From a virus (Duplodnaviria; Heunggongvirae; Uroviricota; Caudoviricetes): a stretch of 64,000 nt of DNA. The notes beneath the pieces were generated by a model, which saw only the letters and a program-made list of their open reading frames with translations, was not told where the DNA came from and made no database searches. Shown in pieces: positions 7,667 through 64,000 of this stretch. Where the stretch lies: IMG/VR virus record IMGVR_UViG_3300026382_000001; one strand, 5' to 3'. Made by a program: the position numbers and the translations under genes. Every line of letters begins with the position of its first letter. Position 1 is the stretch's first letter.

Positions 7667-9241
7667 TTAATCATATATACTTTTAATTTTTTTTCTAGTA
7701 GAATTACCTTTTTCATAATCTCTTACATTTTTAAGTTTATGATCTTTCCAAGATTCTTCGTATTTTGGTTCTTCGCCTTTAGCAATACTATCTTTAAGTT
7801 TATTATCATCTATAACCGCTCTTTGTTTTTCAGCGGCTTCATCAAGATCCAAATAAGCTTGTTTAATTTTTTGCTTTAAGTACATATAGAATTGATCAAG
7901 ATATTTATCTTGGAATAATTCTTGTTTATTTTCTTTTAATTTTTCAGCAATTTCGTCAACACTTAAAAGAACTTTACCAACTTTATACATTAAATCATTA
8001 ATATCTCTTCCATCAGTTTTAATATGTTCAAAAATATTATAATCTTTTCTACGAGAAGCTACTTTAACTTTTTCAAGAATATCCGTAGTCGTAATATCTT
8101 GAGACATAGCTACTTTAGCATATCCCAATAAAAGATCAAAAATATGATCATAAGTACATTTACGGAATTCGAAGAAACTTTTTTGAAAACTTGGATCATT
8201 CGCATCAATATTAAATAAAAATCCTAACATACTTTTATCAGTATCTTGAGGATTACCTAACCATTGCATACGACCAGTTTTTATCCAATTAGCAAAAGAA
8301 TTAAAACTAAATTTAAAACCTTGACGTTCAGTACTATCCATTACTTGAGCATGTTTAGTCCAACAATCATTGATAATCGTTTCTCTAGTATTTTCTTTTT
8401 CCTGAATATCTTTAATAAAATCTTTGATTTCATCTTTATCTAATTCATTTGTATTTTTAAGAATTTCCCCAACTTTACCATAAGGTTTTAATAACATTTC
8501 AGCAATTGCTCTAGTAGGTGAAATTAATTCTAAAGCTTTCCCTGGTCTCGAAGTACCACTTCTACCAAGCATTTTATATTTAATATTACTTGATCCAATT
8601 AGTTGGTAAGGGCTATATAAAGCAACCACGCCAAATAAAAGAGCTTCTTTAATAGTTCTTGCTAATCCTACAGTACTTCCAACAAAGAAATTACTAATAG
8701 CATCTTCAACTTTATCATAAGCTGCACCAAGATTTTTATAACCATTTTTAAAAGAATCTAAACTTTCTTCTAGTTGCAATTTACTTGCAAAAATAATACT
8801 TTCTGTTAATTCACTTCTTTTATCTTTTGGAAAATCGTTAAATATAAAATTTTCAATAAGGTAACGAGATGTACTTTCATATTTAATTTGAGAACTAAAA
8901 TCTAAATTGAATTGAGTACCTTCTTCAATCATTTCAAATTTTTTGAGAGTAAGACTCTCTTCGAATTTTTGAAAAGCTGGTAAAATAGTATTTTCAAACA
9001 GGTACTCTTTTATAAATTTAGTTTTTTGTTCGTCCGGAATACTTATTAATTTACCATAACCACTTTTCTTATCGTAATAAAATTCTTCGAAAAGTTTATC
9101 CGCATCTATATTATATGAACCCATTGTAGTTTCAAATATCAATTCATCATTTTTCAATAATTTACCATATTCGTAATTAACTATAGATTTGAATTTATTT
9201 TCAGTTTCTTTATTAAAGAAACCTTTATGTTCGTAAGCCAT
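7667..9241 (-). CDS. hypothetical protein, probably processed head protein
   Basis: 524 aa ORF with FEES/LEES/IEEG motifs. Confidence 0.6.
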   Translation of the reverse strand: MAYEHKGFFNKETENKFKSIVNYEYGKLLKNDELIFETTMGSYNIDADKLFEEFYYDKKSGYGKLISIPDEQKTKFIKEYLFENTILPAFQKFEESLTLKKFEMIEEGTQFNLDFSSQIKYESTSRYLIENFIFNDFPKDKRSELTESIIFASKLQLEESLDSFKNGYKNLGAAYDKVEDAISNFFVGSTVGLARTIKEALLFGVVALYSPYQLIGSSNIKYKMLGRSGTSRPGKALELISPTRAIAEMLLKPYGKVGEILKNTNELDKDEIKDFIKDIQEKENTRETIINDCWTKHAQVMDSTERQGFKFSFNSFANWIKTGRMQWLGNPQDTDKSMLGFLFNIDANDPSFQKSFFEFRKCTYDHIFDLLLGYAKVAMSQDITTTDILEKVKVASRRKDYNIFEHIKTDGRDINDLMYKVGKVLLSVDEIAEKLKENKQELFQDKYLDQFYMYLKQKIKQAYLDLDEAAEKQRAVIDDNKLKDSIAKGEEPKYEESWKDHKLKNVRDYEKGNSTRKKIKSIYD

Positions 9242-10535: not shown

Positions 10536-10967
10536 TTATTCAAAATTAATAGTTAAATCTTTTTTCTTTAATTCTTCAATCTCTTTTTCTAATTTTTTTA
10601 TATTAACATTAAGTATTTTTTTATCTTCTTTTAATTCACTTATATGATTTTGAAAAGTTTCCCGTTCTATTATACATACCGAATAACTAGTTAAAAATTC
10701 ATGATTTTTACTAAATAAGGATTTATTAATATTTATATTATTTATTACTTTAAATACTTCCTCTAATGATAATTTTATATTACATGTCTCTACTTTACCA
10801 TTTATATTTTTATTATTAAAAAATTTTAATAAATCTGTATTATTTTTAACGCCATCTAAATTTTCAATTATTAATTTTTCAATTGCTATTGTATAATCTG
10901 ATATTGATTCGTCCTCACATATATCTAATAATCTATCTATTTCTTCTTGACTTAATATATCTGCCAT
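10536..10967 (-). CDS. protein with FliM N-terminal (CheY-P binding) peptide mimic
   Basis: Starts MADILSQEEIDRLL (FliM-N consensus LSQxEIDxLL); remainder unrelated to FliM; ends KKKDLTINFE. Confidence 0.7.
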   Translation of the reverse strand: MADILSQEEIDRLLDICEDESISDYTIAIEKLIIENLDGVKNNTDLLKFFNNKNINGKVETCNIKLSLEEVFKVINNININKSLFSKNHEFLTSYSVCIIERETFQNHISELKEDKKILNVNIKKLEKEIEELKKKDLTINFE

Positions 10968-11523: not shown

Positions 11524-12657
11524 TTAATTATGTTGTGCATTTAAAACTTCTCTAAGAATTATTAAATCGGTTGTTAACCCTATATTATAAAAAGCCGATT
11601 GAACCGCCGATCCAAATACAGTTGCTTGATTAGTTCTCTTATCATTAATATACTTTTGAGCCTCTATAGCTATTGGGACCGATATGGCCATTGCCCAAAT
11701 AGTTCTTGCTTGTAAAGAAGCTTTAGATGTTTCGGTATCTGTATCTTGTCCAACCGGTGGGGTCATACTTTTAAAAGTACTTTTACTTTCTTTTTCCAAT
11801 AAGTCGGTATCTGCTGGATCAGCATAAAAAACTATATTTAAAGCCCCAAGAACTTTTACTGCGATATAAATTTCGTCCATAAAACCTTCCATAGCATCTA
11901 ATAAAGTATTTAAATCCCTTAATCCCACTTCAAGTTTAGTTTTATACTTATTTATGGCATTAATAAAAGGTTCCGCATCTGCCTCATAATTAAGTTGACC
12001 TACATCCGGAACAGTATAATTATTATAATAAGCGTATGAAAGATTGGTTTTGGTATTACAATCTAAATTTGTGGCATCTTGATAATTATTATAATTAGCA
12101 TATATTTGATAATTATCAAATTGTTTTATAAAATCATTGTAAATGCTATCAAAGTACGCCATGATATTTCCATATTTAATAGCTTCCTGAATTTCTTGGA
12201 CTTGTCTAAACATTTCCATAAAATCACATTCAAATTTAGATACTTGTTTGGCCATACTATAATTTTGTAAAAAGTTCCCAACCCCTTTATCTAAGGTTGC
12301 TATTAATTTAGCAAAAACTCCATCTACTTTACCAATGGTTGGATCATATACGCCACGAGGATTTTCCTCTCCATTTAAACAATCGGTACATCTTAAAATT
12401 TTTTCGGTTAATTTTTCTACTAATGGTCCAAGAGGTTCCTCATTAAAATCTCTTTTAATAATATCCCAAAAGGTTTCGCTATAATCACAATCAGTATTTT
12501 CTATATAATCTAGAGCATCTATTCTTCCTAACATATAATTATCTATATTTTTTAAAAATTCGGTATATTTTTTAAAATGTAAGATAACGATCCAGTCAGT
12601 ATTTTGATTAAAATATAATCTGTCGTCTTTATAATCTGGGCTCATGAAGTTTATCAT
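11524..12657 (-). CDS. hypothetical baseplate-region protein
   Basis: 377 aa ORF directly downstream of PAAR; CxxC motif. Confidence 0.65.
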   Translation of the reverse strand: MINFMSPDYKDDRLYFNQNTDWIVILHFKKYTEFLKNIDNYMLGRIDALDYIENTDCDYSETFWDIIKRDFNEEPLGPLVEKLTEKILRCTDCLNGEENPRGVYDPTIGKVDGVFAKLIATLDKGVGNFLQNYSMAKQVSKFECDFMEMFRQVQEIQEAIKYGNIMAYFDSIYNDFIKQFDNYQIYANYNNYQDATNLDCNTKTNLSYAYYNNYTVPDVGQLNYEADAEPFINAINKYKTKLEVGLRDLNTLLDAMEGFMDEIYIAVKVLGALNIVFYADPADTDLLEKESKSTFKSMTPPVGQDTDTETSKASLQARTIWAMAISVPIAIEAQKYINDKRTNQATVFGSAVQSAFYNIGLTTDLIILREVLNAQHN

Positions 12658-12699: not shown

Positions 12700-13008
12700 T
12701 TACATGCTCATATTCATCGGATCGCCTGATACAATCATCGCTTGTACTATTGGACCAACTACTGTAGCACCTAATGTACTCGTTGGCATACCACTATTTA
12801 AATCCATTGGTACTCCAGTCATAATCATGGCTGAACCACATGGAAATATAACAGTATCCCCCATCCGAGCGGTTGGCATACCAGTATTAAGGCTCATTGG
12901 ATCGCCGGATACAACTATTCCAGTGGCTGGTTGAGGACCTGGTCCAGCTGGTGGAGGAGGCCAAAAACAAGTACCAAAAGCAGTATCTCCAATTCGGGTA
13001 ACTACCAT
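12700..13008 (-). CDS. PAAR-repeat spike tip protein (T4 gp5.4-like)
   Basis: 102 aa; TRIGD, GMPTARMGD and GMPTSTLGA repeats; Cys residues. Confidence 0.85.
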   Translation of the reverse strand: MVVTRIGDTAFGTCFWPPPPAGPGPQPATGIVVSGDPMSLNTGMPTARMGDTVIFPCGSAMIMTGVPMDLNSGMPTSTLGATVVGPIVQAMIVSGDPMNMSM

Positions 13009-13028: not shown

Positions 13029-13439
13029 TTATATATCTAGTAATATAACTAATTTATTTTCTATTTCCGATATTTTTATTAAATTTTTAAAAAATTTATT
13101 TTTCGGTTTTGGAATTTTTATTTTATTATCTGAAATTTCAAATACTCTATATATTTTATGTATTGGTATTAAAATTTTTCCATATTTTTTAGTTTTAATT
13201 AACATAAGAATTTTTGCATGTTCTATTTCTATATTTTTAGAAGTCAGTCCAATTAATTTATTTAAATTAAAAACTGGAAAAATCGTATTCCGAATAATAC
13301 CAAAACCATAACTCGGAGAATTTAATTCACCCGTTTTTGTAATTTTTATATCCTGAGTTCTCATAAATTCTATTATATTTTCCGCTGGAAAAGCAAATAT
13401 TTCATCCGAATTTGGTAATTCAAAAACTGCTATTTTCAT
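13029..13439 (-). CDS. cheW: CheW-like chemotaxis coupling protein
   Basis: 136 aa; VFEL..EIFAFP..NIIE..ITK..GIIRNTIFPVFNLNKLIG..IHKIYRV..LVILLDI matches the CheW pattern. Confidence 0.7.
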   Translation of the reverse strand: MKIAVFELPNSDEIFAFPAENIIEFMRTQDIKITKTGELNSPSYGFGIIRNTIFPVFNLNKLIGLTSKNIEIEHAKILMLIKTKKYGKILIPIHKIYRVFEISDNKIKIPKPKNKFFKNLIKISEIENKLVILLDI

Positions 13440-57991: not shown

Positions 57992-58017
57992 ATATGTGGA
58001 TTTTCTTATTGTTTAAT

Positions 58018-58797
58018 TTATCTACGTACTTGGTTATATACCAAAGTATCGCCAGATGTTGTTGTTGGACTAGCAACGGTTCTTTTAATATTTTCAATAC
58101 CACCAGAAACATGACCAACTAAGGTACCCATTGGACCAGAAGTTAAAGGATTTAAATAAGATTGAACTGGATGGTCTGCTCTGATCTGAGCTAAATCGTC
58201 TGTATAATTATTATACGAAGCTCTTACAACATCTTTTTCAGCATTCCAAGGATTATTAGTAACATCTGCCGCTACAGTAACTTTATTACTTATATCTGGA
58301 GAATCAGTATCCTTCAATATTTTATATGCGCCTTTTTCAATGGAACCCATTCCTTTTATAATACCATGAGATAATGGTCCACCTACAAAAGGATTTAATA
58401 AATAATGACCCGTATTTTTATCAAAATTTTGAGACATTACATTATCCATATTATTATAGATTTGTCCTCTTGCTCTCATTGATTTATCCCAAGCACCATC
58501 CTCCTCAAGAGTTTTATCAGTACTTTCTTTAAGAATCTGTTGAGGTTGAGGTTGAGGTTGACCAGCATTTGGAATAGTACTTTGGCTTAATTCATATGGG
58601 TTTTGTCTACGACCATAATAAGCTAAAGCTCCATAAGGTGTTGCTAACATCGGTCCACCCAGAATAGCTGCGCCAATTACCGAACCAGCAGTATTCATAC
58701 CACTATTATGATTACTTAAACCCACCTCGTTAGCGTTTGGAGCCATTACTACTTGAGCTTCTTCTAAAATAGCTTTTTTATTTATTTCTAATACCAT
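58018..58797 (-). CDS. putative internal head/ejection protein
   Basis: MVLEINKKAILEE N-terminus; glycine-zipper helix; internal duplicated LLNPFxGGP/YLNPLTSGP module. Confidence 0.55.
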   Translation of the reverse strand: MVLEINKKAILEEAQVVMAPNANEVGLSNHNSGMNTAGSVIGAAILGGPMLATPYGALAYYGRRQNPYELSQSTIPNAGQPQPQPQQILKESTDKTLEEDGAWDKSMRARGQIYNNMDNVMSQNFDKNTGHYLLNPFVGGPLSHGIIKGMGSIEKGAYKILKDTDSPDISNKVTVAADVTNNPWNAEKDVVRASYNNYTDDLAQIRADHPVQSYLNPLTSGPMGTLVGHVSGGIENIKRTVASPTTTSGDTLVYNQVRR

Positions 58798-58813
58798 TTG
58801 AATTCCTTAATTT

Positions 58814-59617
58814 TTATTTGCGTTGAGATGCTTTATACAGAGCCGCTCCACCAAGTCCTAAACCAGCTACACCAAGACCAGTATTAATATTCGCTCGCAT
58901 TGTATTACTTGCGCCAACTTTAGCATTATTTTGAATACCAGTTCGATTTTGAGAAATTTCTTCCTCATTCATAGCACCAGTTGCTTCATTATCATCTACT
59001 CTACTATTTGTATTGGCAATATTTGTAAGATTTTTAGCAATTGCTTTATGATTATCAGTACCAGTTTGAGAATTTACTTTAATATCTTCTTGGTTAGTAT
59101 GTATGTCGTTATCTTGGTGCATATTATGCTGAGAGTTCGCAAACGATCTCATTTTATTTGTAGTTATATTATGTTCATTTTGAGCTACACCAGAAGCATT
59201 TTGAGCTACACCAGAAGCATTTTGAGCTACACCAGAAGCATTTTGAGCTATATCATTATTAACCGATTCGGGTACTAAACCTTCTTTAACTCCCTCGACA
59301 CTATTATGATAAGCAGCCGAAGTACGTTCAGCTCCTTGCATAAAAGCTGGTTTAATTGTATGGTAAGCATTTTGTCCAACTGATTGCATATTATTATAAA
59401 CCTTTTTTCCTTGCGCTACAATATCATCATGCAATTGGCTATTTGGACCACCAGCCGTATATTGATCAATAGCATCTACTTTTGGCGTTACTGTATTATT
59501 CCACCAATTAGATACTCCTTCACCAATCTTTGAAAATTGTTCTCCAACTCCTGGAATTTCTTCCCCAAGAGCATTTATATCTTCTAAAAGTAACTTTTTA
59601 TTTATTTCTAATATCAT
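58814..59617 (-). CDS. putative internal head/ejection protein
   Basis: MILEINKKLLLED N-terminus; AQNASGV repeats; C-terminal GLGVAGLGLGGAALY helix. Confidence 0.55.
   Translation of the reverse strand: MILEINKKLLLEDINALGEEIPGVGEQFSKIGEGVSNWWNNTVTPKVDAIDQYTAGGPNSQLHDDIVAQGKKVYNNMQSVGQNAYHTIKPAFMQGAERTSAAYHNSVEGVKEGLVPESVNNDIAQNASGVAQNASGVAQNASGVAQNEHNITTNKMRSFANSQHNMHQDNDIHTNQEDIKVNSQTGTDNHKAIAKNLTNIANTNSRVDDNEATGAMNEEEISQNRTGIQNNAKVGASNTMRANINTGLGVAGLGLGGAALYKASQRK
59176..59250. repeat. 21-bp in-frame tandem repeat, about 3.6 copies
   Basis: cattttgagctacaccagaag x3 plus a partial copy. Confidence 0.9.
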
Positions 59618-59671
59618 TGTATTTCCTATTTTATTTGTATTATTGTTTTGTTCTATCCAATTTTCAGTAAT

Positions 59672-59697
59672 ATATTTATTAGCATGCTAATAAATAT
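59672..59697. repeat. perfect 26-bp palindrome
   Basis: atatttattagcatgctaataaatat. Confidence 0.85.
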
Positions 59698-59920
59698 CTT
59701 TTAAAAATCCGAACTATTTGAGTGAACCAATGGAGTATCGTTTTTAACATATTCATGCTTACTAGAGAAAGCTTTTTTTATTTTAGAGTCAATATACCAA
59801 ACCATTTAGATAATGTATGTATTGCTTCATCGCCATGATTGGGTCGAAAATATTTTCCAATATTTATATTTGGTTTTATTTATAGTTTAGTTAGTTTATT
59901 ATTAATTTGTATAAATAAAA

Positions 59921-59951
59921 GACAGGAGATTCTTGGTATTAGCCAAGAATT
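59921..59951 (-). terminator. intrinsic terminator with TCTCCTGTC tail
   Basis: 10-bp stem directly after the porin gene. Confidence 0.75.
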
Positions 59952-61141
59952 TAAAATAAATAATCTAATCTAAAATATATTCTTTTATCGTATTGATCTG
60001 TTTTTACTACAGCGTTACCACCTTTTAATTTTTGATAATTAATATCAGAGTACTTAAAATTAATACCAATATTTAATTTTGGCGTTAAACTAACGCCTGT
60101 ATAAAATTTATAAATATTCCCAAGATCTCCCCAAGAATAACTATCTTTATTATACTCATCTGTTACAGCCGATACCCAATATTTACTACTATGAAAATAT
60201 TCAATTCCATAATAAATATCTTTTTTAATAATTGGTAAATAATTTATTTTTTTAGCTCCTAAAAAAATACTATAACCATATCTAGAACCTTCGTTTGTGA
60301 ACGAAGCTCCTGGACTAGTTGGATCGGTAAATCCTGGTGGGAGAATTAATGGTTGTTCATTTGGTGTTAATTTAGTTCCATCGAAATCTGTTTTTGAACC
60401 GGCTATAATACCATATAAAGAATAATCAGGAGTATCATAGGATATTCCAATCCCAAACATATATAAATAACCTAAACTAACATCTTCGTCCCCAGATATA
60501 TTTTCATAAACTATGTCAGAAATACTCGTATTAAATTTAAATTTTAAATCATTGTTTAAATAATTTTTACTAGCAAATAAAAAGGCAATGTTTGATCCTG
60601 GTACAGTATGTTCATATCGATTTGTTGGTGATAATTCGTATTTTGTTCGTTCCGCATACCCCAGTTGTATTTTTCCATTATCAAAATGATGAGTATAAAA
60701 TACTCCAGGTAATGTTAAATAATACATAGTATATAAAGCATCCGATTGTTCTAGTCCTATTTTAGAATATTCCGACATACTTCCATACTTAAAAGATAAT
60801 AACCCAATAGTTAATATATCATCGTTGGTTATAAATGTATTTAAAGCCAATTCTGAAAATTCTAATTGAGTCCCTTCCTGAATTATATGATTATACGTTC
60901 TAGAATAACTTTCAGAATACTTAGAGAAATATATAGTACTAGTAATACTAAAATTATCAAATATAAAATCATTAAATGTCGTTATATCTATTAAATGACG
61001 AGAGCCAATATATTCACCGTTATTTTCCGAACTTGTGATAGTTCCATATACCACTTCTAAATAATTAGTATTCTTATATTCGAATGCCATAGCTAACTGA
61101 ACAACTATGCTTAATACCAAAATAATTTTAATTATCTTCAT
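59951..61141 (-). CDS. outer-membrane beta-barrel (porin-like) protein
   Basis: Signal peptide ending AMA; alternating aromatic strands; C-terminal beta-signal FRLDYLF. Confidence 0.75.
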   Translation of the reverse strand: MKIIKIILVLSIVVQLAMAFEYKNTNYLEVVYGTITSSENNGEYIGSRHLIDITTFNDFIFDNFSITSTIYFSKYSESYSRTYNHIIQEGTQLEFSELALNTFITNDDILTIGLLSFKYGSMSEYSKIGLEQSDALYTMYYLTLPGVFYTHHFDNGKIQLGYAERTKYELSPTNRYEHTVPGSNIAFLFASKNYLNNDLKFKFNTSISDIVYENISGDEDVSLGYLYMFGIGISYDTPDYSLYGIIAGSKTDFDGTKLTPNEQPLILPPGFTDPTSPGASFTNEGSRYGYSIFLGAKKINYLPIIKKDIYYGIEYFHSSKYWVSAVTDEYNKDSYSWGDLGNIYKFYTGVSLTPKLNIGINFKYSDINYQKLKGGNAVVKTDQYDKRIYFRLDYLF

Positions 61142-61505
61142 AATTATTCTCCTTTCTATTCTGTATTATAGAGCTTTTATTTTTTTTATCTCCAATACTT
61201 CTTTGGTATTTTTCTATTTTAAAACCATTATTAATTAGACAATCCGATAACTTTTTTTCATTTTTCGTACTTAAGTAGTGTATATGTAAATAATTTGTTA
61301 GAGCTCCTTCTTTATAAATACGATACCATCCTTTAGGGGAACGAACTTCTGGATCTATATCATATTCTTTAAAAAGTACAGTACAAGTACCATTTGAATA
61401 ATCTTTATTAATATTTTTAATCCTTTCTCGAGCGATTAAATTAGAATTTAATAATAAAAATATATAAAAAAATAATGTTGGTTTGCCCAAAAATAGTTTT
61501 TTCAT
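61128..61505 (-). CDS. small secreted/periplasmic protein
   Basis: Signal-like MKKLFLGKPTLFFYIFLLLNSNLIA; overlaps the porin start. Confidence 0.55.
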   Translation of the reverse strand: MKKLFLGKPTLFFYIFLLLNSNLIARERIKNINKDYSNGTCTVLFKEYDIDPEVRSPKGWYRIYKEGALTNYLHIHYLSTKNEKKLSDCLINNGFKIEKYQRSIGDKKNKSSIIQNRKENNYEDN

Positions 61506-61519
61506 ATTTCAACCTTATG

Positions 61520-62995
61520 TTAATAATTTTCTTTTTTTGCTTTAATTCCTGGAATCGTAATTTCAAAAACAGTTCCTTTTTCGGAGGTTTCCCTTAATTT
61601 TAAATTTCCATGATTATCCCGTAATAATTCCTTATTTAAATATAATCCTACTCCTCTTGCGTTATCTTCTTTAACTGGTTCTGGTGCTATTTTTAAAAAT
61701 CGATTTGTTTTAGTAAATTTCGTTTTTAAAATATGTACTAAATCTAAAATATAACCTTTTGAATTATAAATTTTAGATTTTCCATTTTTATTTTTAGAAC
61801 TGTAATAATCTTTAAAAATATTTTGATATTTTGATGGAGATAGTAATAATCCAGTATCTGGATCTCTAAGACCAGTCCCATTATCAATTATAAATATATG
61901 TATTAATTTTATTTTTTCATTTTTAGTATCAGATACTTTTAGCTGTAGATGTATTTTTGTGGCACTGGCTTCTATACTATTTCTTAAATGATTAGAAATT
62001 ATATTTAATAAATCAGCATTTTTTAAATATCCATCTCCATGTTTAAGACTCCATTCCTCAAATGCTGGATCAATTATAATTTCAAAATAAGAAGCTTTAT
62101 AAATACTCATAGAATTAGCCGAATAATTTAAAATATCAAATAATGTTTTATTACCATTACTGTATTTGAGATTTTTAAAATTACTCATTCTTTCTAGTAC
62201 TGTACCAATTTGATCAATACTCGAATAAATCATGTCAAAATCTATTCCTTTAAATTGTTCGGTTAATGCACATGTTTTAAAACAATTTTTCGAAATATCA
62301 TATTGTCTTTTTAAAGATTGTTCTATTTTTAAAACAGATCCTTGAATAATAGCTACTGGAGTATTTAATTCATGATGTATATTTTCAGTAAGTATTTGCA
62401 TATTCTTTTCTCTAAGAATACTGCTAGTATTTATAACATCTAAAGCTTTTCGTCTTGATAATTTAAATTCATATATAAAAAATATAAAAGTAATAGGTAT
62501 TATAAATATAACATAAATATAAAAATACCCTTTTAGTAATTCGCTTAACGTATAATAACTATTACTTGATAAATACAAATTATATTTTGGTAAAGTTATT
62601 ATAATATTTTTATGTAGGTCTTCGTTAAAAGCTGTATTAACAGTATTTTCTATTATTGGAATTTTATTCAATTTCCAATAAATATTAATTATTTTACGAT
62701 TATTATTTTTTATTAATTTGCCATCTTTTAATACGTATGATTTATTTCTATTTATAAAACCAATTTGAGAACAGTTTGAAATAGTACAAATATGTTGTAA
62801 ATCTATTTCGTGATATTCTTCAATTGTTTTTACTACGGTGTTTTTTAAATTTTCTTTATACATGTGAACTATATTGTGAAAATTATTACCAAGTACTGCT
62901 CCCATTAATAAAGTATATATAGTTATTAAACCAAGATACTTAAAAAATATTGATCCAGAAGCATGATATAAACTTCCCATTTTAGAGGTTTCCAT
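61520..62995 (-). CDS. membrane sensor histidine kinase
   Basis: Two TM segments; H-box NIHHELNTP; N-box NHLRNSIEA; G1 IIDNGTG; G2 RGVGLYL. Confidence 0.9.
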   Translation of the reverse strand: METSKMGSLYHASGSIFFKYLGLITIYTLLMGAVLGNNFHNIVHMYKENLKNTVVKTIEEYHEIDLQHICTISNCSQIGFINRNKSYVLKDGKLIKNNNRKIINIYWKLNKIPIIENTVNTAFNEDLHKNIIITLPKYNLYLSSNSYYTLSELLKGYFYIYVIFIIPITFIFFIYEFKLSRRKALDVINTSSILREKNMQILTENIHHELNTPVAIIQGSVLKIEQSLKRQYDISKNCFKTCALTEQFKGIDFDMIYSSIDQIGTVLERMSNFKNLKYSNGNKTLFDILNYSANSMSIYKASYFEIIIDPAFEEWSLKHGDGYLKNADLLNIISNHLRNSIEASATKIHLQLKVSDTKNEKIKLIHIFIIDNGTGLRDPDTGLLLSPSKYQNIFKDYYSSKNKNGKSKIYNSKGYILDLVHILKTKFTKTNRFLKIAPEPVKEDNARGVGLYLNKELLRDNHGNLKLRETSEKGTVFEITIPGIKAKKENY

Positions 62996-63004
62996 ATTGT
63001 ATCC

Positions 63005-63724
63005 TTAATTTACTAAATCGTATTTGGTGTTTTCAAAGACTCCGTCTTGTTTACCAATAATAAATTTGTCAAAATAATTATGTAGTGTTAATTCTATTAA
63101 TTCTTTACGATTACTAGTTTTATTTATAACATGTTTATAAATTTTAATATCTCCATTATTACTACTTGAAGTTTCTTCGATTTCATCCATTTTTACTTTA
63201 AAGGTGGTTTCAAATTTATGAATAAATTTAAATATTTCCGGATTATGTTTATTAAGAGTATGTCCAGTTACAAATTTAATTAAACAATCTGGATTACGTT
63301 CTTTTAAAAGAATTGCAATATCTATACCATCTAATTCTTCACCATTAATAATACCACCTAAAGTAATATCTAAAAAAGCTATATCTATAATTAAATCTGG
63401 ATTACTCATTAATAAATTTCTTATACTAAAACCAGCAAATATTCCAGTACTTACTATTATATTAAAATATTCTTTTACATTACAGCATCTTGCCTGATAT
63501 AATTCATCCTTGATTAATTCAGCCATTCCATCGAAATCATCCATAATAAATATTGTTTTAAGATCTTTATTAAATATAGCTTCTTTGTTTATATTTATTT
63601 CTGGTATTTCTATTTTATAATTATTTGAACCAAGATCCATTGGTTTAAGATAATCGAGTTCTTCTTGTTCTTCTTCTTGTTCTTCTTCTATAAAATAACT
63701 TTTTATTTTTTCAAAAATATTCAT
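63005..63724 (-). CDS. receiver-domain response regulator without DNA-binding output (CheY-like)
   Basis: IFIMDD acidic pocket; AFLDI phosphoacceptor; DGIDIA; FVTG; no HTH output domain evident. Confidence 0.8.
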   Translation of the reverse strand: MNIFEKIKSYFIEEEQEEEQEELDYLKPMDLGSNNYKIEIPEININKEAIFNKDLKTIFIMDDFDGMAELIKDELYQARCCNVKEYFNIIVSTGIFAGFSIRNLLMSNPDLIIDIAFLDITLGGIINGEELDGIDIAILLKERNPDCLIKFVTGHTLNKHNPEIFKFIHKFETTFKVKMDEIEETSSSNNGDIKIYKHVINKTSNRKELIELTLHNYFDKFIIGKQDGVFENTKYDLVN

Positions 63725-63736
63725 TTGTTTTCCTAT

Positions 63737-63982
63737 TTATTTTTTAAATTCTTCGATTGCTAACATTATATGATCTATAATAGCGGTATATGCGGTTGAG
63801 TCAATTTCGTATAGTAATAATAATACCGCTATAGTACTTCCAAGAAGTACTGGTATTTTAAATAAATTTGACCAAGTATGCCATTCTTTTTTAGGTTTTG
63901 GTTTATTAAATTTACCAGAGTTTTTTTCTATAGTTAATAAATAATTATATAATTCTGTATCAGCTTGAATACTCTTATCCAT
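63737..63982 (-). CDS. small single-TM membrane protein
   Basis: IPVLLGSTIAVLLLLY helix; same operon as the two-component genes. Confidence 0.6.
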   Translation of the reverse strand: MDKSIQADTELYNYLLTIEKNSGKFNKPKPKKEWHTWSNLFKIPVLLGSTIAVLLLLYEIDSTAYTAIIDHIMLAIEEFKK

Positions 63983-64000
63983 TAAAGTAAGTATTTGATT

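Follow-up and report, generated by a model that had tools for sequence, protein, structure and literature searches.

To our knowledge, the phage decisions described so far are made by means of repressors, peptide signals or the direct binding of proteins. Two-component genes on phage genomes are not unprecedented (PMC10987575; PHROG 10912): host-like phoR and phoB auxiliary genes have been reported from soil and public viral genomes, and phage manipulation of signalling has been proposed (PMC10987575). In a survey of 224 jumbo phages, only a divergent receiver was recorded, never linked to kinases (PMC7824862), and neither two-component systems nor kinases were mentioned in the huge-phage literature searched. 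The main text of a catalogue of huge-phage beta-barrel proteins contains no mention of the terms histidine kinase, two-component or response regulator (bioRxiv 10.64898/2026.10.24.761521). Putative porins of the DUF3373 / TCDB 1.B.62 class have 18 strands and about 505 amino acids (aa) (PMC4827864). The present analysis concerns a five-gene operon at the end of a 64,000-nucleotide stretch of DNA (hereafter, the window) from the Caudoviricetes virus record IMGVR_UViG_3300026382_000001, in which a membrane protein (p150), a receiver, a sensor histidine kinase, a small secreted protein (s125) and a putative outer-membrane barrel are encoded one after another. This operon very probably provides the phage with a functional two-component sensor of the envelope.

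The operon consists of the following features, with the coordinates of the window:

63737..64000, minus strand: C-terminal 87 codons of p150, the first gene of the operon, whose start lies beyond the window.
63005..63724, minus strand: stand-alone divergent CheY-like receiver, 239 aa (motifs, AlphaFold2 fold, Foldseek).
61520..62995, minus strand: membrane sensor histidine kinase, 491 aa (Pfam, 26-member alignment, hydropathy, PDB profile search).
61128..61505, minus strand: small secreted (periplasmic) protein s125, 125 aa (signal peptide, orthologues after the kinase).
59951..61141, minus strand: putative outer-membrane beta-barrel of the DUF3373 class, 396 aa (Pfam, AlphaFold2, Foldseek).
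59917..59950, minus strand: terminator-like element closing the operon, a hairpin AUUCUUGG-CUAAUA-CCAAGAAU followed by CUCCUGUCUUUU.

The five open reading frames (63982-63737, 63724-63005, 62995-61520, 61505-61128 and 61141-59951) are separated by 12, 9 and 14 nt, and the last two, encoding the secreted protein and the barrel, overlap by 14 nt, so that the five tightly linked genes described in the first-pass annotation of this DNA are borne out. The first of them had been taken for an 81-aa membrane peptide; it does encode a membrane protein, but it is not a complete gene, since the window edge cuts a gene of 150 aa that is present in full in L032 (9116-9568). Here and below, L-numbers designate contigs or loci of relatives; L032 is the same phage in another, independent assembly, which is 100% identical to the window over the overlap and reaches 9.3 kb further, and L001 (IMG/VR) is the closest distinct relative, its record of 81 kb being a 29%-complete fragment.

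According to hydropathy, two membrane helices of the kinase (residues 16-35 and 153-180) enclose a periplasmic domain of about 117 aa, in which a Cys pair, C70/C75, was conserved in at least 90% of the sequences of a 26-member alignment. The DHp domain, with the H box IHHELNTP (H208), comes after the second helix without a HAMP domain, and the CA domain contains the N, G1 and G2 boxes together with a long variable ATP-lid insert. Residues T203, E204, H208, E209, L210 and P213 of the H box, N339 of the N box, D371, G373 and G375 of G1, and G448 and G450 of G2 were invariant across all 26 members, down to 23% identity. The kinase matched HATPase_c of Pfam (PF02518) with 35.9 bits (cut-off 26.4), a PHROGs kinase family matched its catalytic end, and the DHp and CA domains of the family profile aligned with HK853, SrrB, ZraS, FixL and WalK of the PDB (E-values from 6e-8 to 3e-6). 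The named matches of the periplasmic part in the ESM Atlas were Cache-like and HK_sensor-type bacterial extracytoplasmic sensor families (0.86-0.88), which should be treated as a lead only.

The (beta-alpha)5 fold of the receiver is preceded by a 55-aa N-terminal extension and interrupted by a beta-hairpin ahead of strand 5, and the protein carries no output domain. Among 27 homologues, the pocket residues D63, D119 and T153 were invariant and D62 and K202 nearly so (at least 90%); in the AlphaFold2 model (predicted local distance difference test, pLDDT, 84) each of them lies at the end of strand 1, 3, 4 or 5, and D119 is the predicted phospho-acceptor. All 50 of the 50 PDB matches listed by Foldseek for this model were receiver domains, with a target-normalised template modelling score of up to 0.75. 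The Response_reg family was matched by 14 of the 27 family members at E <= 0.01 (best 3.5e-5), no other family recurred, and the window's own receiver had no match in PHROGs or NCBIfam. On the modelled fold and the motifs, and not on the curated score, the receiver is a divergent member of PF00072; kinase and receiver alike belong to the classical superfamilies by motif and fold, while the receiver and the DHp domain miss the curated scores of Pfam. Thus, the intact H, N, G1 and G2 boxes and the intact receiver Asp, read at first pass from the window alone, were found throughout the aligned families, the absence of a DNA-binding domain is upheld for the receiver, and the invariance of boxes and pocket, the folds and the conservation described below show a genuine, intact phage-borne two-component system.

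The third conserved component, p150, combines a helical cytoplasmic N-terminal part, a single membrane helix at residues 107-130 and a short conserved tail, YEID..AY. Its orthologues of 149-185 aa have the same layout and stand directly upstream of the receiver in most of the related loci, and the family forms 51 clusters at 50% identity among 1.84 billion proteins. No match to p150 was found in Pfam or NCBIfam, the match in PHROGs was marginal (E 0.009), and a look-up in the ESM Atlas gave nothing usable. The predicted complex of the receiver with the cytoplasmic part of p150 scored 0.25 against a mark of 0.32, which is evidence neither way.

The operon recurs in many phages. Three further assemblies from different runs contained an identical receiver gene with the same gene order and flanks and matching gene lengths, although two short contigs covered only part of the block. 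In L001, the operon occupies the same place beside a capsid protein that is 99.4% identical, and the operon proteins are only 57-80% identical. Look-ups of kinase relatives and a profile scan of IMG/VR revealed about 25 distinct diverged loci on contigs of up to 287 kb, with kinase identities of 25-77%; in total, relatives were found for the kinase (103, of similar lengths), the receiver (58) and p150 (51 clusters). The order p150, receiver, kinase was present in 18 of the 21 loci compared in a survey with hidden Markov models (IMG/VR, ENA, Logan, JGI and NCBI assemblies), down to 25% kinase identity, and the other three kept the receiver and the kinase, with p150 not detectable. Genes neighbouring the operon in these relatives encode a tail tube, a T4 gp13-like protein, a prohead protease, a major capsid protein, RNA polymerase beta, ribonucleotide reductase and Apyc1. 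Genes for actin-like proteins (ALP_N / MreB-like_C) were located one to three genes from the kinase in L004 (8385-9290) and L006 (11910-12860).

Every locus whose context was examined was phage-like, except for three short contigs of metagenome-assembled genomes (MAGs). These were the three matches returned by a pattern scan for the kinase in 185,579 species-representative genomes; they lie on contigs of 1.4-5.8 kb assigned to the unrelated phyla Gracilibacteria, Cloacimonadota and Woesearchaeota, and in both of those with sequence ahead of the kinase the receiver again precedes it, in keeping with mis-binned fragments of phages. It should be noted that such a scan finds only sequences sharing conserved peptide patterns, distant cellular relatives being outside its reach. 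Within the limits of these searches, the operon appears phage-specific: it recurs with its synteny in phage contigs, and no counterpart was found on the bacterial chromosomes of the species genomes.

The pairwise identities of the kinases correlated with those of the receivers (Mantel r 0.76, 0 of 2000 permutations) and of p150 (r 0.72), values that are inflated by shared ancestry and that, as comparisons of sequences, would indicate co-inheritance, not interaction. Relative to L001, the ratio of nonsynonymous to synonymous substitution rates (dN/dS) was 0.18 for p150, 0.26 for the receiver, 0.20 for the kinase and 0.41 for s125, with 0.06 for the capsid gene; the operon genes are under purifying selection. 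The dS of the operon was 0.6-0.9 and that of the adjacent capsid gene 0.14, that is, four to six times lower, and therefore the operon alleles diverged much earlier than the structural genes, by mosaic exchange. Genes of the homing-endonuclease type (PHROG 3339; DUF723, DUF4379, DUF7487) flank the operon in L001 (6897-8615 and 12920-14702) and L032 (6690-8420) and may explain its raised dS.

The operon is delimited on both sides. At its end, an 8-bp hairpin (59950-59929, dG -8.7 kcal/mol, z -3.6) is followed by CTCCTGTCTTTT, and this type of terminator, a hairpin plus TCTCCTGTC, also stands just upstream of p150 in L032 and L001, a hairpin with (T)TTCCTGTC thus bounding the operon on either side. 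Bracketed by such terminators, the five genes constitute a transcription unit of their own. The phage-type terminator claimed at first pass is in this way confirmed, and its architecture recurs in the window: the motif TTTCCTGTC is present in five exact intergenic copies (21597, 36452, 45130, 55116 and 56220), all on the coding (minus) strand, and both copies inspected (45130 and 55116) lie directly 3' of a hairpin. The gap before the operon contains a promoter-like motif that is conserved between the two closest phages and does not recur elsewhere in the window; the palindrome ATAGTTAACTAT is also found upstream of the operon in L001 (8676-8687). Another motif, AACTAAATA, which may be a phage promoter, has seven copies (15609, 17492, 21296, 36236, 50137, 53742 and 57983), all on the coding (minus) strand and mostly just upstream of genes; it was absent from the operon region of the window (58000-64000) and from the sequence upstream of p150 in L001. 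A scan of the operon for sigma-70 promoters gave as many as the shuffled expectation and is therefore uninformative.

The last two genes encode exported proteins. The sequence of s125 starts with MKKLFLGKPTLFFYIFLLLNSNLIA, a signal peptide according to inspection and hydropathy, without a lipobox, and its conserved core, C..LFKEYDIDPEVRS..GW.R ... CLI..GF.I, includes two conserved Cys residues; no match was found in any family library (Pfam, PHROGs, NCBIfam) or in the ESM Atlas. The barrel protein also has a signal peptide by inspection and hydropathy, starting with MKIIKIILVLSIVVQLAMA, and ends in ...RLDYLF, F396 being invariant in the alignment of homologues and every orthologue ending in F or Y. 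The signal peptides and the C-terminal beta-signal that had been noticed at first pass are thereby upheld. The match of the barrel to DUF3373 (PF11853) was marginal (27.3 bits, cut-off 26.1), and PF11853 was precomputed for 9 of the 11 homologues. The AlphaFold2 model (pLDDT 79, predicted template modelling score 0.78) is a closed barrel of 16 long strands; Foldseek aligned it with OmpT, AlgE, OprB and OmpF-type porins at E-values from 1e-12 to 1e-9 and with AFDB clusters named porin or DUF3373. On this modelled DUF3373-class fold, the protein is a putative porin. No relative was obtained from a single-sequence scan of IMG/VR or a profile scan of the species genomes, no match from PHROGs or NCBIfam, and DUF3373 was not found in 14 control genomes, where it was sought in view of a possible capture of a host pair of periplasmic protein and Omp50-like porin.

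Unlike the core of p150, receiver and kinase, these two genes come and go. Orthologues of s125 stand directly after the kinase in L001, L002, L004, L007, L014, L016-L018, L021 and L027, with a diverged form in L015, and s125 is followed by the barrel in the window and in L002, L004, L007, L014, L015, L016, L018, L021 and L027; s125 occurs without the barrel in L001 and L017. The barrel is dispensable. The loci that bear it belong to several deep branches of the tree of the cytoplasmic part of the kinase, with well-supported branches forcing at least three changes, and therefore the five-gene form is old and has been repeatedly trimmed. In L017, non-coding tandem repeats (11630-12400) occupy the position after s125 where the barrel would be expected. 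In L013, a relative of 40% identity, two canonical single-domain receiver genes (8174-8978; Response_reg 38 and 23 bits) replace s125 and the barrel, which suggests a branched phosphorelay or a phosphate sink.

This distribution bears on the alternative that survives best, in which two unrelated modules share one transcript: the core of p150, receiver and kinase would signal alone, and s125 and the barrel would have a separate role, such as outer-membrane remodelling, receptor masking or the exclusion of superinfecting phages, as proposed for other huge-phage outer-membrane proteins. The absence of s125 and the barrel from many relatives that keep the core, together with the truncation of the barrel in the closest relative, speaks for this arrangement. 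However, wherever s125 and the barrel are present, in at least five deep branches, they come immediately behind the kinase, their frames overlapping or almost abutting, and they stay with the kinase even in L004, from which the receiver has moved away. Their presence also tracks the type of sensor domain: s125 was found in at least 12 of the 15 loci whose kinase N-terminal sensor region aligns with that of the window and in none of the seven in which it does not. As a pattern across sequences, this fits s125 and the barrel as an input module for this type of sensor, and the two-module arrangement is considered rather unlikely.

The preferred reading is that of a self-contained, phage-lineage-specific two-component signalling operon working as set out below; it is the best overall explanation, and our confidence in it is slightly better than even. 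Gene integrity, folds, motifs, conservation, restriction to phages within the searches and operon boundaries are the observed level on which the following steps build. The kinase would be located in the inner membrane with its Cys-pair sensor domain in the periplasm, as its predicted topology suggests. A periplasmic or envelope cue would lead to autophosphorylation on H208 and to transfer of the phosphoryl group to D119 of the receiver, and the intact HELNT motif suggests that the kinase may also dephosphorylate the receiver. Lacking a DNA-binding domain, the receiver has to act through contact with another protein. The protein p150 could be the target of the receiver or a membrane modulator of the kinase, and s125 and the barrel would be an accessory input module that travels with this type of sensor domain and can be lost. 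Conservation of the operon across the phage group, together with the failure to find it on the bacterial chromosomes searched, makes it probable that the virus senses the condition of the host envelope, perhaps for the timing of lysis.

The output favoured here, the timing of lysis or of another late envelope event through p150, is put forward tentatively, at well below even confidence. The genes immediately upstream of p150 encode a GH108 endolysin and a three-helix GTA_holin_3TM holin in both L019 and L022; in the L004 phage, p150 and the receiver are directly preceded by a gene for a GH108 endolysin. L019 and L022 belong to a branch of the kinase tree separate from that of L004. Two independent lysis adjacencies are unlikely to have arisen by chance (an expectation of ~2%, by our own rough estimate from a few lysis genes among several hundred). 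By the criterion of holin/endolysin linkage, such neighbours are present in L019, L022 and L030 and absent from the window's own phage and most loci. The control of lysis timing suggested in the first-pass annotation thus keeps a contextual basis, with holin or endolysin beside the core in two independent lineages, but has no such neighbour in most loci, including the window's phage.

Several observations weigh against the preferred reading. The receiver reached 16.9 bits with Response_reg (PF00072), below the gathering cut-off of 30.2, and HisKA (PF00512) was matched at 17.3 bits (cut-off 26.9) over 20 residues only. Lysis adjacency was found in only 3 of ~21 loci, and the operon of the window is not beside lysis genes. 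The barrel is cut to its first 41 codons in L001, the closest relative, and is absent in L006, L008, L013, L019, L022, L025, L026 and L028. The association of s125 with the sensor type (Fisher p 7e-4) is uncorrected for relatedness and inflated by shared ancestry, as are the correlations among kinase, receiver and p150. In the L004 phage, the receiver and p150 are encoded ~120 kb from the kinase, s125 and the barrel, and therefore strict operon coupling is not required. Owing to the two extra receivers of L013, the phosphoryl flow may be more complex than that of a single pair. A 236-aa gene preceding the kinase in L004 was considered as its receiver and ruled out (hhalign probability 0.3%), the true receiver being the distant one.

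A takeover of motility or chemotaxis, in which the receiver would take the part of CheY at the flagellar switch of the host, or at phage proteins mimicking it, and so steer or stop the infected cell, is quite improbable. The receiver is indeed single-domain, CheY structures are among its listed fold matches, and the window encodes two proteins of chemotaxis flavour. One is a CheW-domain protein of 136 aa (13029-13439, minus strand; 36 bits, cut-off 23.5), whose gene adjoins a PAAR-like gene (12700-13008) in the tail and baseplate region. The other, of 143 aa (10536-10967, minus strand), starts with MADILSQEEIDRLL, which we take to resemble closely the N-terminal FliM peptide bound by CheY; beyond it the protein is coiled-coil-like with no FliM domains, searches of the PDB and the literature with this N-terminus gave nothing, and the protein could be a decoy for phosphorylated CheY or a partner of the phage receiver. 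However, the kinase is an orthodox membrane HisKA type: it matches HisKA and HATPase_c only, has two membrane helices and carries none of the domains that mark CheA (Hpt, dimerisation, CheW-like). The receiver is ~15% identical to CheY, and its inserted beta-hairpin lies on the face that CheY uses for FliM. Moreover, ~50 kb separates the operon from the genes of the CheW-like and FliM-like proteins, and neither gene was found in the record of L001, which as a 29%-complete fragment is uninformative on this point.

Slightly less probable still is an auxiliary system for nutrient sensing, such as a phosphate sensor resembling PhoR with uptake through the barrel, tuning host physiology to resources. 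The best NCBIfam matches of the kinase were PhoR and PnpS, a PIN-PhoH gene stands directly upstream of the core in L013, OprO is among the listed fold matches of the barrel, and phage phoR and phoB genes have been reported (PMC10987575). The NCBIfam matches, however, cover the generic catalytic core only and are far below the cut-offs (30 bits against 334-400), the receiver without a DNA-binding domain cannot act as PhoB, no pst genes are nearby, and no bacterial Pho kinase is a close relative of the family.

Equally doubtful is a phage-owned pathway across the whole envelope, in which the kinase would take its input from the barrel and the periplasmic Cys protein, and the receiver, once phosphorylated, would target both the lysis machinery and the behaviour of the host, with the CheW-like protein and the look-alike of the FliM N-terminus controlling swimming. 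The channel of five proteins from the outside to the cytoplasm envisaged at first pass is not supported as an obligatory path, the barrel being truncated in L001 and missing elsewhere while p150, receiver and kinase persist. Finally, a mis-assembled host-derived fragment or a decaying, non-functional remnant, which has nothing in its favour beyond the bacterial flavour of the domains, is extremely unlikely, and the chimera that the first-pass annotation had named as its refutation was rejected because three further assemblies contain the identical block and many diverged phage contigs keep its synteny, together with the conserved place in L001, a GC content matching the rest of the window, invariant catalytic residues, dN/dS well below 1 and the lack of a chromosomal counterpart in the searches.

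The window is AT-rich (23-37% GC), with nearly all genes on the minus strand, and encodes a tail sheath, a virion structural protein and a capsid-like protein (PHROGs) as well as six tRNA genes. The block, the kinase, the barrel and the capsid protein had no DNA or protein match among GenBank phages, and the longest contig in the kinase protein record is 281,328 bp; the source is therefore an uncultured jumbo phage. In this phage, the operon lies between the prohead protease (prohead-core genes) and the capsid gene, amid three paralogues of 191, 267 and 259 aa that all start with M(I/V)LEINK (window 58018-59617, minus strand, and L032:8449-9024). These paralogues flank the signalling operon on the stretch from the Peptidase_S77 prohead protease to the capsid gene; they probably serve in the prohead core or as scaffold, and their N-terminus would be cleaved by a protease. 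The 267-aa gene contains tandem VAQNASG units, and its copy in L032 lacks 14 residues, which would correspond to two such units.

A phage-owned His-Asp phosphorelay, selected across a group of giant phages and not found in cells within these searches, would be a different viral way of reading the host. If its output is the timing of lysis, a layer of signalling would be added to lysis control in large phages, and if the barrel and s125 feed the sensor, the virus would have built its own input route through the outer membrane. With its small parts, known catalytic residues and standard assays, the family lends itself to direct tests.

In the lysis inhibition of phage T4, the periplasmic antiholin RI acts on the holin T by direct protein binding, with no phosphotransfer. 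By analogy, both systems would let a phage read a periplasmic signal and adjust the timing of lysis by means of small proteins that are secreted or membrane-bound; the operon showed no detectable homology to RI or T, and the likeness rests on gene neighbourhood only. The barrel resembles the catalogued huge-phage barrels and the DUF3373 / TCDB 1.B.62 porins in its signal peptide, large barrel and C-terminal aromatic residue, and the former in being encoded by a huge phage, but it has 16 modelled strands instead of 18 and, with 396 aa, is ~100 residues shorter than is typical of TCDB 1.B.62. The phage-borne phoR and phoB genes (PMC10987575) are likewise two-component genes on phage genomes; in the trees of that study they group with reference proteins from bacteria of different phyla, and PhoB binds DNA, whereas the kinase, receiver and p150 described here form a phage lineage of their own with a shared history, and the receiver has no output domain. 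Among the closest counterparts are orthodox pairs of a HisKA kinase and a single-domain receiver such as HK853-RR468 of Thermotoga maritima, with which the operon shares the H-E-x-x-T-P box of the DHp domain, the N, G1 and G2 boxes of the CA domain and a receiver gene next to that of the kinase, and HK853 structures were among the best profile matches. In contrast to HK853-RR468, the family found here is phage-specific, with no close cellular relatives found; its kinase combines a periplasmic Cys-pair sensor with the lack of a HAMP domain, its receiver bears a 55-aa extension and an additional beta-hairpin, and a conserved tail-anchored membrane protein, s125 and the barrel are attached to the pair.

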